NCBI GenBank assembly: GCA_004321905.1
Contig: SCQF01000006.1
Span: forward strand, 25,410 to 89,409
Direction: 5' to 3'
Length of the DNA stretch: 64,000 bases
DNA from: Verrucomicrobiota bacterium
Lineage (GTDB): Bacteria; Verrucomicrobiota; Kiritimatiellia; CAIQIC01
Shown here: positions 2,350 through 42,793 of the stretch, piece after piece
Layout: each line of letters starts with the position of its first letter
Position numbering within the stretch: the first letter of the stretch is position 1
Notes under the pieces: generated by a model
The model's database searches: none
The model's input: only the letters and a program-made list of their open reading frames with translations
What the model was told of the DNA's origin: nothing
Made by a program: the position numbers and the translations under genes

Positions 2350-3360
2350 TCACGCAAACTGGGCCAGAAAACGTACATCATTCTCGTAGAGATTACGAAT
2401 GTCGCCGATGCCGAACAGGATCATCGCAATGCGCTCGACGCCCATGCCGAAGGCGTAGCCCTGCCACTCATTGGCGTCAATGCCGACGTGCTCAAAGACC
2501 CGCGGATTGACCAGCCCCGCTCCGGAAATCTCAATCCAGCCGCTTTGCTTGCAAACGCGACAACCTTTGTCGCCGCAGACGTGACACGAGAAATCATATT
2601 CCACGCTCGGCTCCGTGAACGGGAAAAAATGCGGGCGGAAGCGCACCTTGACGTCCGGCCCCATCATCTGCTTGGCGAAATAACTGACGTCGCCCTTGAG
2701 GTCGGCCAGCGAAACCTTGCGATCCACATACAGCCCTTCGACTTGATGGAAGCTGGCGCTGTGCGTCGCATCGGTCGTGTCGCGGCGATAGCAGCGACCG
2801 GGCGCGATGATGCGGATTGGCGGCTTTTGCGCGAGCATCGTTCGCACCTGCACCGGCGAGGTGTGCGTCCGTAAAATCGTGTTTTCCTTGAGATAAAACG
2901 TATCGGTCGGCGCGCGCGAAGGATGATCCTCCGGCGTATTCAGCGCCGTAAAATTGTTGAACACCGTCTCGATGTCCGGCCCGGACGCGACCGTGAAACC
3001 CATCGAGCGGAAAATCGCCGTCGCGCGTTCGATGACCTGCGTAATCGGATGCAGCGAGCCAAGCCCACGCCAGCGACCGGGCAAGGTGACATCGAAGGCG
3101 GAGGCGGAGGTACGCACCGCGGCGGACTCGAACGCAGCCTTGCGCGCATCGAGCGCGGCGGTGACTTCGTTTTTAAGCTCGTTGGCAAGCCGGCCCGCCT
3201 CGCGGCGCGCTTCGGGCGCGAGTGCGCCGAGGCTCTTCATGATCGCCGGCAACTGGCCGCTGCGACCCAGCCATTTGATACGGACGGCTTCCAGCGCCGC
3301 GGCATCGGCCGCGCTTTGCACGTCGTTCAACGCCTGTTTTTTTTGTTCGGCAATGTTCAT
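2350..3360 (-). CDS. pheS: phenylalanine--tRNA ligase alpha subunit
   Basis: 336 aa. Class II aaRS motifs (FRPHFFPFTEPS, GAGLVNPRV, GFAFGMGVERIAM). Confidence 0.9.
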   Translation of the reverse strand: MNIAEQKKQALNDVQSAADAAALEAVRIKWLGRSGQLPAIMKSLGALAPEARREAGRLANELKNEVTAALDARKAAFESAAVRTSASAFDVTLPGRWRGLGSLHPITQVIERATAIFRSMGFTVASGPDIETVFNNFTALNTPEDHPSRAPTDTFYLKENTILRTHTSPVQVRTMLAQKPPIRIIAPGRCYRRDTTDATHSASFHQVEGLYVDRKVSLADLKGDVSYFAKQMMGPDVKVRFRPHFFPFTEPSVEYDFSCHVCGDKGCRVCKQSGWIEISGAGLVNPRVFEHVGIDANEWQGYAFGMGVERIAMILFGIGDIRNLYENDVRFLAQFA

Positions 3361-3411
3361 TTTCCAAGCCTTGGAAAAACTGCACTTTCACTTTTCCAAT
3401 CATTGGAAAAG
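3360..3411. repeat. paired palindromic element, pheS 5-prime region
   Basis: TTTTCCAAGCCTTGGAAAAA, 12-bp spacer, then CTTTTCCAATCATTGGAAAAG. It overlaps the pheS start codon. Confidence 0.8.
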
Positions 3412-7345: not shown

Positions 7346-7405
7346 GTAAAAGCCGGGGCGCAAAATAGCGGCTCATCTGCATCGCGTCAATGGCGAAGTG
7401 CGCGC

Positions 7406-7458
7406 GTTTCCAAGCCTTGGAAAACCCGGCGCGCACTTTTTCCAAGGCTTGGAAAAAC
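7406..7458. repeat. paired palindromic element, upstream of priA
   Basis: GTTTCCAAGCCTTGGAAAAC, 10-bp spacer, then CTTTTTCCAAGGCTTGGAAAAAC. Confidence 0.8.
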
Positions 7459-25878: not shown

Positions 25879-27363
25879 ATGCGTGCCAAACACGAAGCAA
25901 AAATAGTGTCAGCCAAGGCTGTTCCAAGCCTTGGAAAAACCACCCTTCCCGTTTTCCAACCCTTGGAAAACAAAAAGGATTCTTGTGGGCGGGAGTTCCA
26001 ACTCCCGCGCCGAGAAGAACGAATCTTCTCTGAGCGACATCTACAATGTGTCTGGTTCGACGCCGAGCTGCGTCCGCCGAATCTCGTCACCGCGCAGGGC
26101 GAAGCGATTGAGGTCGAATCGCCCGGCGTCTGGAACCTCGAAGCCGGCCCGGATTTTCTCGGCGCGGCGTTGCGCCTTGGCCCGGAGCGCCGCCGCGTCA
26201 CCGGCGATGTCGAAATCCACATTCACCCCGCCGACTGGCAGGCGCACGGCCATAGCACCGAGCCGCGCTATGACCGCGTCCGCTTCCACGTCACGTTTTT
26301 TCCCGGCATCGCCGACTTACCGCCGAACGTCACGCACATTGCCTTACGCGACGCACTGGCCGCCCAACCACGCTTTGCTTTCGAGAGTATTGACCTGACC
26401 GCCTATCCGTATGGCGTGCGCTCGCCTGCCCCGCCCTGCGGTGTGGCGTTGCAAAACTGGACGCCCGACGACCGTGAAGCGTGGCTCGCTTCCGCAGGCG
26501 AAACTCGACTCCGCCAACGTGCCGAGCGAATCGCGCGCGCCATCGCGAAACGCGGGCCCGACCAAGTCATCTACGAAGAAGTCATGGCCGCACTCGGCTA
26601 CAAACAAAATCAGGGCGCGTTCCGACGCCTCGCCGAAGCGGTGCCGCTGGCGACGTTGCGCGCCGAAGCCAACGGCCAAGCCGACATCGCCTACGCCCTG
26701 CTCGCTGGCGTGGCCGGTCTGTTGCCCAGCCAACTCGCCGCCCGCATGGACGAGGAATCGCGCACGTTTGTGCGCGGCTTGTGGGATGCGTGGTGGAAAC
26801 GACGCGAGCGTTTTACCGGCGCTATACTCGCCGCCGATGCGTGGCGACTTTCCGGCCTGCGTCCGCTGAATCATCCACTGCGCCGGCTGGCCGCCGCGGC
26901 GGTACTTTTCACCGCACCGCGTTCGCTCGCCGAAGTCTGGACCGAACTGGCCGCAAAATTTCCCAACGATTGCCTGGCCCCTGCACACGCGCATCTGCTT
27001 GCCATGCGCCATCCGTTCTGGGATTACCACCTGACGCTGACCGGCAAGCGCACCGCTAAACCCACCGCGTTGCTTGGCGAAGCGCGCGCCGACGCGATTC
27101 TGATCAACGACTTTGTGCCGTTCCTCGCCGCACAACACAGCCGCGCAACGTTCGCCCCGGAACTGCTCGCACAGTTGCCAACGGAGCAAGATAACGCCGT
27201 GCTACGCGAAACCGCCTTCGCCCTGTTTGGTCGCGACGCACCAAACTCGCTCCTCCGCGACGGCCTCCGCCGCCAAGGCCTGCTCCACATCTTCCACACC
27301 TACTGCCTGAACGACCGCTCCCGCTGCGCCACCTGTCCTTTGCCGGACATGTTGCAGAAATGA
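25879..27363 (+). CDS. DUF2851 family protein
   Basis: 494 aa. ERHLQCVWFD...NLEAGPDFLGA... is characteristic of DUF2851. The N-terminal ~30 codons translate the palindromic element, so the start is uncertain. Confidence 0.5.
   Translation: MRAKHEAKIVSAKAVPSLGKTTLPVFQPLENKKDSCGREFQLPRREERIFSERHLQCVWFDAELRPPNLVTAQGEAIEVESPGVWNLEAGPDFLGAALRLGPERRRVTGDVEIHIHPADWQAHGHSTEPRYDRVRFHVTFFPGIADLPPNVTHIALRDALAAQPRFAFESIDLTAYPYGVRSPAPPCGVALQNWTPDDREAWLASAGETRLRQRAERIARAIAKRGPDQVIYEEVMAALGYKQNQGAFRRLAEAVPLATLRAEANGQADIAYALLAGVAGLLPSQLAARMDEESRTFVRGLWDAWWKRRERFTGAILAADAWRLSGLRPLNHPLRRLAAAAVLFTAPRSLAEVWTELAAKFPNDCLAPAHAHLLAMRHPFWDYHLTLTGKRTAKPTALLGEARADAILINDFVPFLAAQHSRATFAPELLAQLPTEQDNAVLRETAFALFGRDAPNSLLRDGLRRQGLLHIFHTYCLNDRSRCATCPLPDMLQK
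25920..25970. repeat. paired palindromic element, htrA / DUF2851 intergenic
   Basis: GTTCCAAGCCTTGGAAAAACC, 10-bp spacer, then TTTTCCAACCCTTGGAAAAC. Confidence 0.8.
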
Positions 27364-27920: not shown

Positions 27921-28166
27921 TTAGTTTTCCTGTTCGGGATCGAAGGGGATGGTGGAGACTTGGCCGTCTTTGGTCAGCAATAGCTCGATTTTCTTTTCCA
28001 CTTCGTTGAGTTTGGTCGAGCAGAATTTGACCAGCTTGGAGCCTTCCTCGAAATGGCTGATCATTTTTTCGAGCGTCAGCTTGCCACTCTCCATCTCGGC
28101 AACGATCTGTTCCACCCGCTCCAGCGCCTTCTCGAAGCTTTGGGTGGGTTCTGCGGTTTTGTCTGC
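27921..28166 (-). CDS. xseB: exodeoxyribonuclease VII small subunit
   Basis: Start MADKTAEPTQSFEKALERVEQIVAEMESGKLTLE... is XseB-typical. Confidence 0.75.
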   Translation of the reverse strand, partial: ADKTAEPTQSFEKALERVEQIVAEMESGKLTLEKMISHFEEGSKLVKFCSTKLNEVEKKIELLLTKDGQVSTIPFDPEQEN

Positions 28167-28284
28167 CATGATTATTCTCCTTTTGATGACGTCGTAGATG
28201 CGGCCTCCGGCCACATTCAGTCAAGCGACCGGAGGTCGCTTCTACGGTAGGGCGCGTTCTCTGAACGTGCCGAAAATTTTGTCT

Positions 28285-29589
28285 CTATCGAACATTCTCC
28301 TTCTTTGAAGCCGTCACTTCCGATTCCAAGCTACCGTGTGCCAAGCGGGTTTCCAGTTTCGTGCCGACCGGTGCCTCTGCGGCATCGCGAATGATCTTGC
28401 CATCCGCCGTGCGCGTTAAACTGAATCCGCGCTCCAGCACCGCCAGCGGGCTAAGCGCGCGCAGATGATCTTCCAGACGCCGGACATCCTGCGTACGCGC
28501 ACCGCGCCACAACTCCAACCGATGGGTCAAGCGCAGGCCGAATTCATCCACCTGCTGGCTGCGTTGCTGCACGATGTCGCGCAAGTCGTTGGCCATCGCC
28601 GTGCGGAGCGCCTCCAAGCGGTCGCGTAGACGACGGATAATATTCTGCGGTTCGCGGAACACATAACTGCCGGCGACGGCAGTCAGGCGGTTACGCAATT
28701 CCAGCATCTGCGTTTTGAGTGCACGCGCCAACCGCGCGCCGCTCTGCCGCAATTGCTCCTCAAATGCCTCTTTATTGCCCACGAGTAGTTCTGCCGCCGC
28801 GCTCGGCGTCGGCGCGCGTAGATCGGCGACGAAGTCGCTGATCGTGAAATCAATTTCGTGGCCGACCGCCGAAATCACCGGAATTCGCGAACGCGCGATG
28901 GCGCGGGCGACGACTTCTTCGTTGAAGCACCACAAATCTTCCAAGCTACCGCCGCCGCGCCCGATGATCAGCACATCTAATCCGCCGCGCGCATTGAGCA
29001 GGTCAATCGCAGCGGCAATTTCCTGTCCCGCATCGTCGCCTTGGACACGAACCGGCGCGATGAGGATGTGTAAATTAGGAAAACGACGGTTGAGAATGTT
29101 CAGAATGTCGCGGATCGCCGCGCCGCTCGGGCTGGTGACAATGCCGATGTGCTGTGGCAGCAATGGCAGCGGCTTTTTGCGCTCCGGCGCAAAGAGGCCC
29201 TCGGCGGCGAGCTTCTTCCTCAGCACCTCGAACTGCTCCTGCAAACTGCCCTTCCCCGCTTCCTCGACGCGGCGGACGATGATCTGGCACTGGCCGGATT
29301 TTTCGTAGGCGGTGATCTGCCCATAGGCGCGGATTTTCAGGCCATCGCGCAAGTCCAAACGCAAACCAAGCTGGCTGCCACGAAACAGGACGGCGGCAAG
29401 TTGCGCCTCGGCGTCTTTAAGCGTGAAGTAAAGATGCCCGGAGGTCGGTTTCCGAAGGTTGGAAAGCTCGCCTTCGATCCAAACCATGCCGAACTCGTTT
29501 TCGAGCGCGGCCTTGATCATCCGGGTGAGTTCGGAAACCTGATAAATCTTCCGGCTGTCCGCGACGGTAGATGTGATTTCGCTCTTCAT
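28285..29589 (-). CDS. xseA: exodeoxyribonuclease VII large subunit
   Basis: OB-fold N-terminus (YQVSELTRMIKAALENEFGMVWIEGELSN) and central catalytic region. Start likely MKSEITST. Confidence 0.8.
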   Translation of the reverse strand: MKSEITSTVADSRKIYQVSELTRMIKAALENEFGMVWIEGELSNLRKPTSGHLYFTLKDAEAQLAAVLFRGSQLGLRLDLRDGLKIRAYGQITAYEKSGQCQIIVRRVEEAGKGSLQEQFEVLRKKLAAEGLFAPERKKPLPLLPQHIGIVTSPSGAAIRDILNILNRRFPNLHILIAPVRVQGDDAGQEIAAAIDLLNARGGLDVLIIGRGGGSLEDLWCFNEEVVARAIARSRIPVISAVGHEIDFTISDFVADLRAPTPSAAAELLVGNKEAFEEQLRQSGARLARALKTQMLELRNRLTAVAGSYVFREPQNIIRRLRDRLEALRTAMANDLRDIVQQRSQQVDEFGLRLTHRLELWRGARTQDVRRLEDHLRALSPLAVLERGFSLTRTADGKIIRDAAEAPVGTKLETRLAHGSLESEVTASKKENVR

Positions 29590-29600
29590 GGAATTCGCCA

Positions 29601-29662
29601 GGTAGGAGCCCGGCCCCGCCGGGCGATAACCCCCCAATCGCCCAGCGGGGCTGGGCTCCTAC
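29601..29662. repeat. GTAG-type REP-like long imperfect hairpin (left flank of RAYT)
   Basis: GTAGGAGCCCGGCCCCGCCGGGCGAT..ATCGCCCAGCGGGGCTGGGCTCCTAC is a near-perfect ~26-bp inverted repeat that begins with GTAG. Confidence 0.5.
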
Positions 29663-29714
29663 AAAGATTTGCTCTATTTCTCATCCCACCGTTCATAACC
29701 CAAAAAATTTCTGT

Positions 29715-30173
29715 CTAATTGATCATGGAAAGCAACGTCCGCACTTGACCAAGCCCATTCTGTTGCCTAACGACTAATTGTTTCCGCACGGGATTGTTTT
29801 CGATATAGCGAACAATGTCCACCACGGATTCTCCGGAGCGCACCTTGTGATCGTGAAAGCCGGTTTGCCATAGCAAACGGCCCAGTTTCCGGGAATTGAA
29901 AGAGGCGTGACGACAGAGGGCGAGGACAACCTGCGGCAAAGTTTTCTTCGCCTGTAAGGAAAGTAAGGCGTGCCAGTGGTCCGGCATCACCACAAAAGCG
30001 TGCAATAGCAGCCAACCTTGTGCGCGCCCATACAAAAAGGCCTTAACGACATCATCGCGTTGTACAGTTGTTAATTGGGAAGGAGTCTGGACACACTTGG
30101 TAACATAATAGAGACCCCACGCTTGCGAAAAACGTCCACGCCGTAATGCGCGTTGATGGGCCTCTAAGTTCAT
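29715..30173 (-). CDS. REP-associated tyrosine transposase (RAYT; IS200/IS605-like HuH transposase)
   Basis: 152 aa with the HuH motif (PDHWHALLS) and a downstream Tyr region. It is flanked on both sides by GTAGGAG... hairpins. Confidence 0.65.
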   Translation of the reverse strand: MNLEAHQRALRRGRFSQAWGLYYVTKCVQTPSQLTTVQRDDVVKAFLYGRAQGWLLLHAFVVMPDHWHALLSLQAKKTLPQVVLALCRHASFNSRKLGRLLWQTGFHDHKVRSGESVVDIVRYIENNPVRKQLVVRQQNGLGQVRTLLSMIN

Positions 30174-30183
30174 AGCCTAGTTT

Positions 30184-30262
30184 GTAGGAGTCCTGCCCCG
30201 CAGGACGAACAGCAAAGATAACGCAAGCATATCGCCCGGCGGAGCCGGGCTCCTACCCAAAC
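30184..30262. repeat. GTAG-type REP-like hairpin (right flank of RAYT)
   Basis: GTAGGAGTCCTGCCCCGCAGGAC...ATCGCCCGGCGGAGCCGGGCTCCTAC shares the GTAGGAG/CTCCTAC termini with the 29601-29662 element. Confidence 0.45.
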
Positions 30263-30272
30263 ATATTCAATC

Positions 30273-31055
30273 CTAACTAATCTTCTCCTGGATACGTTTA
30301 ACCTTTGTGGCGAAGCCGGTCTTTTCGTCCACGGTCACCAGCAGGCCCTCGAAGCGCACATCGCCGGTGGCAACCTCGAATTGCTGCGGCATACCGGTCA
30401 GGAATTTTTTCAGTACCGCACCGACGTCGCGGCCCAGTACTGAATCTTTCGGACCGGTCATCCCGAGATCGGTCAGGTAGGCGGTGCCTTTGGGCAAAAT
30501 GGCGTCGTCAGCGGTTTGCACATGGGTGTGTGTGCCAACGACGACACTGACACGACCATCGAGATAGCGGCCCATCGCGATTTTTTCCGAGGTTGCTTCG
30601 GCATGCATATCCACAACAATGATTTTGCCGAGATCGGCGCTGCCGCGCTGCAAAATCGCGTCGGCGGCGCGAAACGGGCAGTCGCTGGGCGGCATAAACG
30701 TACGGCCTTGGAGCGACATGACGGTGACTTTACCGAGCGGCGTCTCGAACGTGCTCCAACCGCGCCCGGGACAGGTCGGCGCATAGTTGGCGGGACGCAC
30801 GAGGCGTGGCTCGCGGTCGAGCGCCTTGACGATTTCCCGTTGATCCCAAACGTGATCACCAAGTGTGAGCGCATCAGCGCCGGCGGCGAAGAGCGCCTCG
30901 GCGAGCGGCATGGTGATACCGCGGCCACCGGCGGCATTTTCGGCATTACCGATGACAAAGTCTACCTGGCCCGCCTGTTTCATCCGTCCAGCAACGGCAG
31001 CAAAGGCGAGCCGCCCCGGCCCGCCGACAATATCGCCTGCAATCAAAATGTTCAT
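30273..31055 (-). CDS. ymdB: YmdB-like metallophosphoesterase (2',3'-cyclic-nucleotide phosphodiesterase family)
   Basis: MNILIAGDIVGGPGR...GNAENAAGGRGIT...GDHVWDQ...GTHTHVQTAD is the calcineurin-like fold of the TIGR00282/YmdB family. It lies directly downstream of rny, as in Bacillus. Confidence 0.7.
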   Translation of the reverse strand: MNILIAGDIVGGPGRLAFAAVAGRMKQAGQVDFVIGNAENAAGGRGITMPLAEALFAAGADALTLGDHVWDQREIVKALDREPRLVRPANYAPTCPGRGWSTFETPLGKVTVMSLQGRTFMPPSDCPFRAADAILQRGSADLGKIIVVDMHAEATSEKIAMGRYLDGRVSVVVGTHTHVQTADDAILPKGTAYLTDLGMTGPKDSVLGRDVGAVLKKFLTGMPQQFEVATGDVRFEGLLVTVDEKTGFATKVKRIQEKIS

Positions 31056-31070: not shown

Positions 31071-32642
31071 TCAGTGTGCGTATTCCACAAAACGCGTCTC
31101 GCGCACCACGACGACGCGAATTTGCCCTGGATATTTCAGTTCGTACTCGATTTGACGGGTTAGTTCGCGGGCCAGCTTGAGCGCGGCAGCATCGTCCACC
31201 ATGCGCGGCTCAACAAACACGCGGATTTCTCGGCCCGCTTGAAAGGCAAAGGCTTTTTCCACGCCGGGTTGACGCATGGCCAGCGCTTCCAATTCCGCCA
31301 AACGTTGAATAAACAACTCGGTATTCTCCGCGCGTGCCCCAGGCCGGGCCGCCGTGATGGCGTCCGCCGCGCTGGCCAGCGCCGAATAGAGATTGTCGCC
31401 CTCGGTTTCGTGGTGATGCGCCGCGACCGCGCTATAGACCACCGCGGCTTCGCCATGCCGTTTGAGAAAATCCGCACCAATGACCGCATGATTACCTTCG
31501 ACTTCATGATCGAGCGCCTTGCCAATATCGTGAAACAATCCGACGCGTTTGGCGAGGGCCGGATCAAGCCCGAGATCGGGGGCCATCAACCCCATCAGGC
31601 GCGCGGTTTCTACGGAATGTGCGAGCACATTTTGAGCGTAGCTCTGCCGAAATTTCAGACGCCCGAGTAGCCGCGTGATTTCTGGCACAACAGGCTGAAG
31701 CCCCAGCTCCGTCACAGCCTGTTCAGCGGCCTTTAGCATGATGTCGTCGAGTTCCGTTCGGACTTTGGTGGATATTTCCTCGATACGCGCAGGTTGAATG
31801 CGCCCGTCGGCAACCAGTTGCTCCAGCGTCTGCCGCGCCACTTCGCGCCGGATCGGATCGAAACTCGAAACCTGCACCACGCCCGGCGTGTCATCAATAA
31901 TGATTTGCACGCCGCACACCTGCTCGATGGTGCGGATATTGCGCCCCTCACGCCCAATGATGCGTCCTTTCATTTCCTCGCCCGGCAGGGTGACGCTACA
32001 CACCGCCGCCTCGTTCACCACCGGCGCGGCATAGCGCTCAATCGCCTGCAAAATGATCGTCCGCGCCTCAGCGACGGCCGTCGCGTGAGCTTCCTGCTGA
32101 CTGCGACGAATGATCTGGTTGGTTTCGCCACGCAGTTCTTCTTCCATCTGCTGCAGCAACAGACGCCGTGCTTCCTCGCGGGGCAACGTCGCCCGTTCCT
32201 CCAATCTGGTCTGAAGGGCAGCGTTCAACTTTTGCGCCTCTACCTCCGCGTTTTTTAACGCCGACTGCTGTTGCTCCACGTTGTCCATTTTCTCATCAAG
32301 CGTCTGTTCCTTCCGATCCACCACCCCCACGCGCCGGTCGAGGTTGATCTCGCGCTGCATCAAGCGTTCTTCCGTCACCGCGATTTCCTTCCGGCGGGTC
32401 TGCATCTCGTGCTCAAACACCTCGCGGGCCTTCATGATTTCATTGCGCGCCAGAATTTCGGCTTCGCGCGCCACGTTGCCGGCGTCACGCTGTGCTTGCT
32501 CCTGGATAACCTTCGCTTGATGTACCGCCGCGCTACCGCGCGCCCGGTCATAGATCATGTGGAGTAGCACGCCGAACAGGATCCCGACGAAAGCGATGCC
32601 GGCCGGCACCCACCAGATAACGTCCACAACCAGATTTTGCAT
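31071..32642 (-). CDS. rny: ribonuclease Y
   Basis: 523 aa with an N-terminal TM helix, coiled coil, KH domain (GRIIGREGRNIRTIEQVCGV) and HD domain (HSVETARLMG...LFHDIGKA). Confidence 0.85.
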   Translation of the reverse strand: MQNLVVDVIWWVPAGIAFVGILFGVLLHMIYDRARGSAAVHQAKVIQEQAQRDAGNVAREAEILARNEIMKAREVFEHEMQTRRKEIAVTEERLMQREINLDRRVGVVDRKEQTLDEKMDNVEQQQSALKNAEVEAQKLNAALQTRLEERATLPREEARRLLLQQMEEELRGETNQIIRRSQQEAHATAVAEARTIILQAIERYAAPVVNEAAVCSVTLPGEEMKGRIIGREGRNIRTIEQVCGVQIIIDDTPGVVQVSSFDPIRREVARQTLEQLVADGRIQPARIEEISTKVRTELDDIMLKAAEQAVTELGLQPVVPEITRLLGRLKFRQSYAQNVLAHSVETARLMGLMAPDLGLDPALAKRVGLFHDIGKALDHEVEGNHAVIGADFLKRHGEAAVVYSAVAAHHHETEGDNLYSALASAADAITAARPGARAENTELFIQRLAELEALAMRQPGVEKAFAFQAGREIRVFVEPRMVDDAAALKLARELTRQIEYELKYPGQIRVVVVRETRFVEYAH

Positions 32643-32716
32643 GGTTCACCTCCGGCGTCCACCGCCGGGCTTGTTCCGTCCGTTTTTAGTTGCACCGCCG
32701 CCGGGTGTTGCGCCGG

Positions 32717-32770
32717 TCTTCCAAGGCTTGGAAAACCCGGACGGTCGTTTTTCCAACCCTTGGAACTTTT
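32717..32770. repeat. paired palindromic element, rny / MTHFS intergenic
   Basis: TCTTCCAAGGCTTGGAAAAC, 10-bp spacer, then GTTTTTCCAACCCTTGGAACTTTT. Confidence 0.8.
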
Positions 32771-39043: not shown

Positions 39044-39046
39044 GGC

Positions 39047-39100
39047 TTTTCCAAGGCTTGGAAAATCAATCGGCTATCTTTTCCAACGCTTGGAAAAACC
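39047..39100. repeat. paired palindromic element, MATE / prepilin convergent intergenic
   Basis: CTTTTCCAAGGCTTGGAAAATC, 10-bp spacer, then TCTTTTCCAACGCTTGGAAAAACC. It lies immediately before the bidirectional terminator. Confidence 0.8.
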
Positions 39101-42729: not shown

Positions 42730-42740
42730 GACCGCAGAAG

Positions 42741-42793
42741 TTTTCCAAGGCTTGGAAAGGCTGATCGCTCGTTTTTCCAACCCTTGGAAAAAG
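42741..42793. repeat. paired palindromic element, LptE-like / hydG convergent intergenic
   Basis: TTTTCCAAGGCTTGGAAAGG, 10-bp spacer, then GTTTTTCCAACCCTTGGAAAAAG. Confidence 0.8.

Follow-up and report, generated by a model that had tools for sequence, protein, structure and literature searches.

Between the genes xseA and ymdB of a Verrucomicrobiota bacterium (contig SCQF01000006.1) lies a small transposase-like gene with GTAG-headed hairpins on either side. The questions raised by this locus are whether gene and hairpins constitute a REP-associated tyrosine transposase (RAYT) together with its repetitive extragenic palindromic (REP) sequences, and whether the enzyme is still intact. The stretch of DNA analysed, referred to below as the window, is 64 kb long, and the genes of the locus are all located on its minus strand at 27.9-32.6 kb. 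We consider it very probable that the locus is an ordinary RAYT/TnpArep, that is, a fixed and vertically inherited Y1 HUH gene that is bracketed by two REPINs (inverted REP doublets) and has recently been hit by a 1-nt deletion.

Identification of the RAYT protein

The window contains a single RAYT copy. The open reading frame (ORF) at 29715-30173 (minus strand) of the ORF list specifies, as encoded, a protein of 152 amino acids that contains the sequence PDHWHALLS and is matched by Pfam and NCBIfam profiles. The initial annotation had described a 152-aa HuH transposase-like gene between xseA and ymdB-rny, a description borne out by the ORF, its motif and the Pfam assignments of its neighbours. 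The Pfam family Y1_Tnp matched the protein with 25.9 bits (cutoff 23). Classification of the ORF with hidden Markov models, which that annotation had proposed as a check, returned the model NF047646 REP_Tyr_transpos (REP-associated tyrosine transposase) as the sole NCBIfam match at E <= 1 (76.5 bits, cutoff 80). The IS200 transposase profile NF033573 gave no match to the window protein in this search; a Pseudomonas RAYT scored 22.9 bits on the same profile against a cutoff of 55.

The HUH motif is made up of H66-W-H68 and the catalytic Tyr is Y123 in RYIENNPVRK, followed by N127-P128 (Y-x3-N-P). Residues H66/H68, Y123 and N127 align with H59/H61, Y115 and N119 of E. coli TnpArep, and the HUH motif and Tyr are kept in 39 of 40 aligned homologues. 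A total of 63 homologues were found. The closest are proteins of 166 aa that are 74-79% identical, several of which were named RayT by the Joint Genome Institute (JGI), and the nearest named homologues are Pseudomonas RAYTs (35% identity, E = 1e-9), which are also the top scorers on NF047646. By sequence, the best match in the Protein Data Bank (PDB) was 4ER8 (E = 3e-4), the structure of E. coli TnpArep in complex with a REP hairpin; the alignment runs through the Tyr helix and the W-x-F/W-S motif. For fold comparison, the intact orthologue P0003 (74% identical) was used in the form of an AlphaFold model (predicted local distance difference test score, pLDDT, 90.2), and its best match was again 4ER8, with a template modelling (TM) score of 0.69 over 158 columns and E = 7e-9.

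These data bear directly on the alternative that the locus is an insertion sequence of the IS200/IS605 type, or a remnant of one, with the hairpins as the subterminal sequences of its left and right ends. The locus does have the Y1 HUH fold, the Pfam family and the catalytic chemistry in common with IS200/IS605; members such as IS608 and ISDra2 also have subterminal hairpins that are recognised on single-stranded DNA (ssDNA), the GenBank entry carries the name of this family, and the hairpins have no dispersed copies in the window. However, the RAYT model was the only NCBIfam model to match, and the fold of the P0003 model is nearer to TnpArep than to the IS608 and ISDra2 transposases, for which TM scores of 0.41-0.52 were obtained. 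Elements of this type are multi-copy, move as whole units, differ between their left and right ends and in many cases include tnpB, whereas the gene studied here is fixed, single and flanked by REP doublets. Together with the arrangement of the flanks and the inheritance of the gene described below, these differences make an IS200/IS605 origin of the locus extremely improbable. The inactive IS200 remnant that had been named as an alternative in the initial annotation is likewise contradicted by the lack of an IS200-model match, and by the synteny of the gene and the purifying selection acting on it.

Architecture of the REP units and REPINs

Each flank of the gene is a doublet of inverted 25-nt REP units. 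The unit consists of a GTAGGAG head, a 7-bp stem (this count includes the final G of the head and the C of the tail), a 3-nt loop and a CGA tail. Units were scored with a covariance model, R1, that was built from 36 REP variants and run with filters off. Unit 1, at 29602-29626 on the plus strand, is the exact 25-mer GTAGGAG-CCCGGC-CCC-GCCGGG-CGA with a perfect 7-bp stem (46.3 bits). Its inverted partner, unit 2, at 29638-29662 on the minus strand, reads GTAGGAG-CCCAGC-CCC-GCTGGG-CGA (44.7 bits) and differs from unit 1 in the stem by one compensatory G>A / C>T pair. Unit 3, at 30184-30208 on the plus strand, reads GTAGGAG-TCCTGC-CCC-GCAGGA-CGA (40.8 bits); two base pairs of its stem are changed relative to unit 1, both of them fully compensated. 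Unit 4, at 30232-30256 on the minus strand, reads GTAGGAG-CCCGGC-TCC-GCCGGG-CGA (44.0 bits). The stems are hence perfectly paired in all four units, with compensatory differences between them.

Units 1 and 2, separated by an 11-nt spacer, make up the downstream REPIN (29602-29662), which is separated by 11 nt from the preceding ancestral RAYT stop and by 9 nt from the ATG of xseA that follows. The upstream REPIN (30184-30256) comprises units 3 and 4 with a 23-nt spacer; the stop of ymdB precedes it by 16 nt, and the ATG of the RAYT gene follows after 10 nt. As ssDNA, the former folds with -32.2 kcal/mol (z = -7.8) and the latter with -19.3 kcal/mol (z = -4.2) and a separate hairpin for each arm; in both cases none of 200 shuffles was as good. 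That both flanks are doublets of one REP unit and not distinct left and right ends is a further point against an IS200/IS605 element. The initial annotation had reported two long imperfect hairpins; the GTAGGAG...CTCCTAC ends that it gave are present in both, but each proved to be a doublet of inverted units with perfect stems. The second palindrome, which had been assigned to 30184-30262, stops at 30256, although a few extra flanking pairs do extend to about 30263.

All four occurrences of GTAGGAG in the window are located in the RAYT flanks, and the 25-mer gave three matches at up to 3 mismatches where 0.00 were expected. With R1, the four locus units scored 40.8-46.3 bits and the next best site in the window 10.5 bits; since these four units had supplied part of the model, the informative outcome is that nothing else matched. 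An Rfam search yielded just a sub-threshold match of the hairpin to a plant miRNA precursor, which we took as chance. The arrangement of a RAYT with GTAG-type REPs, as first described for this locus, is thus backed by profile, structure, synteny and the REP populations of relatives. The statement that the GTAGGAG REP is unrelated to the TTTCCAA element also stands: the TTTCCAA palindrome lacks a GTAG head and is not found beside the RAYT gene.

A frameshift in the RAYT gene

DNA alignment with the orthologues revealed a 1-nt deletion between 29767 and 29768 (minus strand), where the window reads GTCGTTA-GGCAACAG and the orthologues read GTCGCAACGCCGGCAG. As a result, the window protein departs from all homologues after NPVRKQLV, and the conserved C-terminal 30 aa are swapped for 16 out-of-frame residues unrelated to the homologues. 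Restored translation showed that the out-of-frame remnant of the ancestral C-terminus, ATEWAWSSADVAFHDQLDRNFLGYERWDEK* (29674-29766, minus strand), is still open for 31 codons and conserved. It matches the clade-wide EWxWSSA...LDRxFLGHERW motif, and 11 nt separate its end from the downstream REPIN; with one base put back, the gene encodes a protein of 166 aa. The lost EWxWSSA...LDRxFLGHERW segment is present in all of the approximately 28 clade members and is predicted to be ordered, with pLDDT values of 90-98 for residues 131-160 of the P0003 model. An open and conserved remnant, together with four REP stems that are all perfect, indicates that the lesion is recent. The view of the gene as an intact cognate enzyme of the repeats was therefore not upheld: the deletion removes the conserved C-terminal 30 aa, and the match to NF047646 rises from 76.5 to 83.5 bits once the frame is restored. 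Judged from the sequence, the RAYT gene has probably become a pseudogene recently or else encodes an altered enzyme.

The GenBank entry at the RAYT ORF, TAN38951.1, is only 90 aa long and is labelled 'IS200/IS605 family transposase'; it would be better read as a frameshifted REP-associated tyrosine transposase.

Could the gene nevertheless be intact in vivo, with the deletion arising from a sequencing or consensus error or from a minority variant, so that the RAYT-REPIN system would be fully functional? In favour of this, the source sequence is a metagenome-assembled genome (MAG), the C-terminal remnant is open for its 31 codons and highly similar to the orthologues, the REP stems are perfect in every unit, and the gene has been under long-term purifying selection (dN/dS 0.13). 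On the other side, the deletion is also found in the Logan contig L001, which was assembled from run SRR8426592 and agrees with the window over 2585 nt at 100% identity; the Logan and GenBank sequences come from two different assemblers, though probably from the same reads. The deletion site, GTTA|GGCA, contains no homopolymer run, where indel errors concentrate, and a GenBank product of just 90 aa fits a disrupted gene model. We thus regard an intact RAYT as unlikely.

Programmed frameshifting as a means of reaching the conserved C-terminus was rejected. Only a -1 shift exactly after AGG at GUU-AGG-C would lead into the conserved frame, but a slippery heptamer is lacking and one codon upstream the target frame is closed by a TAG.

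Points against a disrupted RAYT, and the possibility of a gain of activity

Several observations weigh against the reading of the locus as a RAYT-REPIN system whose enzyme has been disrupted. The score of the encoded protein lies below the cutoff of NF047646; orthologues range from 71.8 to 90 bits. The frameshifted protein retains the HUH motif, the Tyr and 139 of the 146 RAYT profile positions. A form of E. coli TnpArep without the C-terminal tail, delta152, showed raised cleavage activity (PMC3479197). Finally, no REP unit was detected with R1 away from the RAYT locus in the 64 kb, nor in the 2.1 kb past the window end.

The delta152 result raises the question of whether the frameshifted gene might yield an active nuclease, deregulated or hyperactive after the loss of an autoinhibitory tail. 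The last ~25 aa of E. coli TnpArep form such a tail (PMC3479197), and by analogy the lost LDRxFLGxERW tail probably corresponds to this autoinhibitory, metal-contacting C-terminus. The E. coli delta152 protein cleaves better and still recombines strands, and natural truncated forms were raised as a possibility by its authors (PMC3479197); in the window protein, HUH, Tyr and N127 are kept. However, truncation here occurs at residue 136 (~E. coli 128), which is 24 residues upstream of delta152. The EWxWSS motif, conserved from E. coli (DWPFST) via Pseudomonas (DYPLWDA) to this clade, is lost as well, the missing segment is a predicted ordered part of the fold, and the covariance scan of the 64 kb showed no surplus of REP copies nearby. 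From these sequence features, impaired or lost RAYT function is more likely than de-repression, and a hyperactive enzyme appears quite improbable.

Dispersal of the GTAGGAG REP class

Because no REP unit occurs beyond the locus in the 64 kb and the adjoining 2.1 kb, a REP population that is live and dispersed is not demonstrated for this genome. The initial annotation had proposed a second palindromic repeat system; its four GTAGGAG units are distinct from the TTTCCAA element, but all of them lie at one locus in the sequence covered. In ~28 kb of sequence around the RAYT gene covered in three relatives, REP units were likewise found solely adjoining it.

A pattern scan of GTDB species representatives, among which the source genome was not included, gave a different picture for other relatives. 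The Verrucomicrobiota MAG CAYNBQ01, with a RAYT 52% identical (L036), has at least 27 REP units over 12 contigs, and the MAG JBAXKQ01, with a RAYT 58% identical, has REP units on several contigs, some of them away from the RAYT gene. In JGI metagenomes, eight Trout Bog contigs, taken as close ecological relatives, that bear the TTTCCAA signature of the window in the form of TTTCCAAGSCTTGGAAA doublets at 32-nt spacing also carry GTAGGAG REPINs with no RAYT there, and one arm of a Trout Bog REPIN is identical to unit 1 of the window. In relatives, the GTAGGAG REP class thus does form a truly dispersed family, and the fact that the same REP units stand alone at many loci there is again at odds with an IS200/IS605 element.

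Comparison of 36 distinct units from relatives showed variation in the inner stem but none in the GTAGGAG head, the closing G-C pair or the GA tail. Since only units with a GTAGGAG head and a perfect stem had been admitted to this set, head invariance and pairing are partly built in and covariation statistics would be circular; the informative part is the stem diversity beside the unselected, invariant CGA tail. By analogy with characterised RAYTs, an invariant CGA tail next to freely varying stems fits recognition of the hairpin shape together with specific flanking bases.

Similar units were also seen outside the phylum. Beside RAYTs 33-37% identical to that of the window, in Beta/Gammaproteobacteria-like genomes, REP units match those of the window at 20 or more of 25 positions, a similarity that is partly built in since the search pattern fixed 18-20 positions. 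Such loci include L013 (4072-4561; Propionivibrio limicola), L074 (an Azoarcus MAG), L090, L097 and L115. Some of these proteobacterial-type units are identical to unit 4 of the window over 26 nt, and similar units are numerous in Halomonas, Thiohalorhabdus and Azoarcus assemblies.

As for the other palindromes, TTTCCAAGSCTTGGAAA has 30 loose matches in the 64 kb, often as doublets with a start-to-start distance of exactly 32 nt (e.g. 3359-3408, 7405-7454, 25919-25968, 32716-32765, 39046-39095, 42740-42789 and 57796-57845). Most copies lie outside the crude ORF map. The closest RAYT relative, whose locus is covered over 11 kb (L007), has no copy of the palindrome there. A contig with the TTTCCAA signature (L127, 9041-9594) encodes a second, distant RAYT, 30% identical, that is flanked by the REP class GTAGGCCGGGTCTCCGACCCGGCG. 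Both REP classes are held by L104 (459-485), and none of the GTAGGCCGGGTCTCCGACCCGGCG class is present in the window. Relatives may thus hold two RAYT/REP systems.

Inheritance of the locus

The gene order rny-ymdB-RAYT-xseA-xseB, with GTAGGAG REPINs flanking the RAYT gene, was recovered in four related lineages whose RAYTs are 74-79% identical to that of the window. These are represented by P0003 in L002-L006, P0001 in L007-L010, P0002 in L136-L138, and L100/L109. The RAYT gene has a ratio of nonsynonymous to synonymous divergence (dN/dS) of ~0.13 and a dS of 0.9-1.1, and the corresponding values for its neighbours are 0.08-0.20 and 0.8-1.4. A dS like that of the neighbours, in combination with shared synteny, indicates that the gene was inherited alongside them under purifying selection, as has been described for domesticated RAYTs (PMC5581495). 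A single window copy at the same site in four lineages, with a dS equal to that of housekeeping neighbours and no tnpB beside it, is not what an IS200/IS605 element would present.

The G+C content of the locus had been described as lower than that of its surroundings, and this is correct (~0.53 vs ~0.60; the xseB region is low too). At third codon positions (GC3), RAYT stands at 0.56 against 0.68-0.72. In every lineage examined (the window, L002, L007 and L008), RAYT GC3 is 0.08-0.28 below that of the adjacent housekeeping genes, despite a dS of ~1. Low GC as a mark of recent horizontal transfer was rejected, since the GC3 deficit is common to all syntenic orthologues; it is a trait of the gene family and no sign of recent arrival, and is hence not evidence of foreign origin. 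Low expression or mutational bias are possible sources of the deficit.

The number and spacing of REPINs differ among the relatives, with one or two upstream and none or one downstream of RAYT. This variation also bears on the proposal that the REPINs are now mainly RNA or transcription elements within a probable rny-ymdB-rayT-xseA-xseB co-transcript, acting as intercistronic stabilisers or attenuators that would uncouple expression of the RNA-turnover genes from that of the exonuclease VII genes. REP hairpins are known in E. coli operons to stabilise the mRNA upstream of them. Here, the five genes are co-directional with short gaps, the REPINs are 9-16 nt away from the ends of genes, a scan for promoter- and terminator-like sites between the genes gave nothing above shuffled expectation, and REPIN positions are retained in relatives. 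Their variable number and spacing speak against such a role, as does the absence of a T-tract after the hairpins. An RNA function of this kind is compatible with the locus being a RAYT-REPIN system with a recent deletion; the REPINs may have it as a secondary role, but that it is now the main function seems rather unlikely.

One orthologue shows a lesion of its own. In P0001, the closest orthologue (79% identical; four JGI samples), Asn replaces the catalytic Tyr (RNIENNP) at the loci L007 879-1379 and L008 4021-4521 and also in L009 and L010. The downstream REPIN of P0001 is without its internal stems, and the head of one of the upstream REPs has changed to GCAGGAG. Judging by these sequence changes, the RAYT of a sister lineage seems to have been inactivated independently. 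The frameshift in the window, alongside the Tyr->Asn change and decaying REPINs of P0001, gives a hint of repeated RAYT decay in the group, and we tentatively raise the possibility that the RAYT-REPIN system is dying out independently in sister lineages of this clade, with the chromosomal slot retained. If this were true, and REPIN populations were shrinking in step, the clade would amount to a natural time series bearing on the proposal that REPINs depend on RAYT. The two independent lesions could help to study REPIN decay after RAYT loss.

Comparison with known RAYT-REP systems and proposed mechanism

By analogy with E. coli TnpArep (4ER8), the intact enzyme would bind the REP hairpin plus the 5' GTAG on ssDNA, and would cut and rejoin strands through a 5'-phosphotyrosine intermediate. 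REP/REPIN units may in this way be copied to new intergenic sites, with the gene itself staying in place. The recent 1-nt deletion, by which the EWxWSS motif and the LDRxFLGxERW tail are gone, most likely leaves the enzyme inactive or at least altered.

The E. coli system of TnpArep/RayT (YafM) and REP/BIME sequences (4ER8; PMC3479197; PMC3333891) has much in common with the locus described here: the protein is likewise a single-domain Y1 HUH enzyme with the Tyr-x3-Asn-Pro and W-x-(W/F)-S motifs, REPs with a 5' GTAG beside the hairpin flank the gene, and the intact orthologues of the window RAYT have a C-terminal extension beyond the IS200 core. The two proteins, however, are just ~21% identical, the E. 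coli metal ligand H123 is a Lys here, and the gene in the window is frameshifted. The E. coli palindrome is long and imperfect, whereas the REP stem here is short (7 bp) and perfect, and a 2-nt GA separates GTAG from the stem, unlike in E. coli.

A close resemblance exists to the REPs of Pseudomonas and Xanthomonas, GTAGGAGC...CGA(A), whose architecture of a GTAGGAG head, a short GC-rich stem-loop and a CGA tail is essentially identical (PMC2817692); published RAYT-associated examples are GTAGGAGCCAGCTTGCTGGCGAA of P. entomophila and GTAGGAGCGCGCTCGCGCGCGA of X. campestris (PMC2817692). In these genera, too, REPs occur as inverted doublets and the RAYT is single-copy and vertically inherited (PMC3116915; Group 3, PMC5581495). 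Unlike Pseudomonas RAYTs, those of this Verrucomicrobiota clade have an extra conserved tail of ~25 aa (LDRxFLGHERW), and unlike Pseudomonas genomes, in which REP copies number in the hundreds, the window shows no high local REP density. GTAG-tagged repeats have also been reported in the same phylum, as abundant GTAG-headed stem-loops in Verrucomicrobia such as Opitutus terrae (Di Nocera 2013, PMC3733652). The likeness to these is by description, and in the window the repeat is confined to the RAYT flanks.

RAYT-REP/REPIN systems are already well described (PMC2817692, PMC3116915, PMC3333891, PMC3479197, PMC5581495), as are GTAG repeats in Verrucomicrobia (PMC3733652), and the locus is no new kind of system. 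It is distinguished by the clade-specific LDRxFLGHERW tail and by a fresh frameshift, and it adds to the known RAYT/REPIN systems a Verrucomicrobiota clade with a distinctive conserved C-terminal tail.

Neighbouring genes and additional observations

The genes rny-ymdB-RAYT-xseA-xseB of the ORF list lie on one strand with short intergenic gaps. On the minus strand, rny (31071-32642; strong Pfam match) is upstream of ymdB (30273-31055; Pfam 6.1e-100), the conserved upstream neighbour of the RAYT gene by Pfam and synteny. The conserved downstream neighbour is xseA (28285-29592, minus strand), encoding the exonuclease VII large subunit (Pfam Exonuc_VII_L, 2.6e-100), and xseB follows at 27921-28214 (minus strand), also with a strong Pfam match. 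No tnpB was found beside the RAYT gene, as evidenced by Pfam identification of the adjoining genes as ymdB and xseA.

The xseA start given in the ORF list, a TTG at 29637, falls inside the downstream REPIN, while the conserved protein begins at the ATG at 29592. In relatives, xseA has been called as a protein of 507 aa (L002 4464-4520), with gene callers running upstream into the REPIN. Starts of xseA that reach into the REPIN (29593-29637) are probably an annotation artefact due to the repeat, the real start likely being the ATG at 29592.

Away from the RAYT locus, a direct tandem duplication of 168 nt, 95% identical, was observed at 60775-61110. It is contained in a 248-aa ORF (60455-61201, minus strand) that has no Pfam match on record and sits in a ribosomal-protein operon between the rpsS and rplV homologues.

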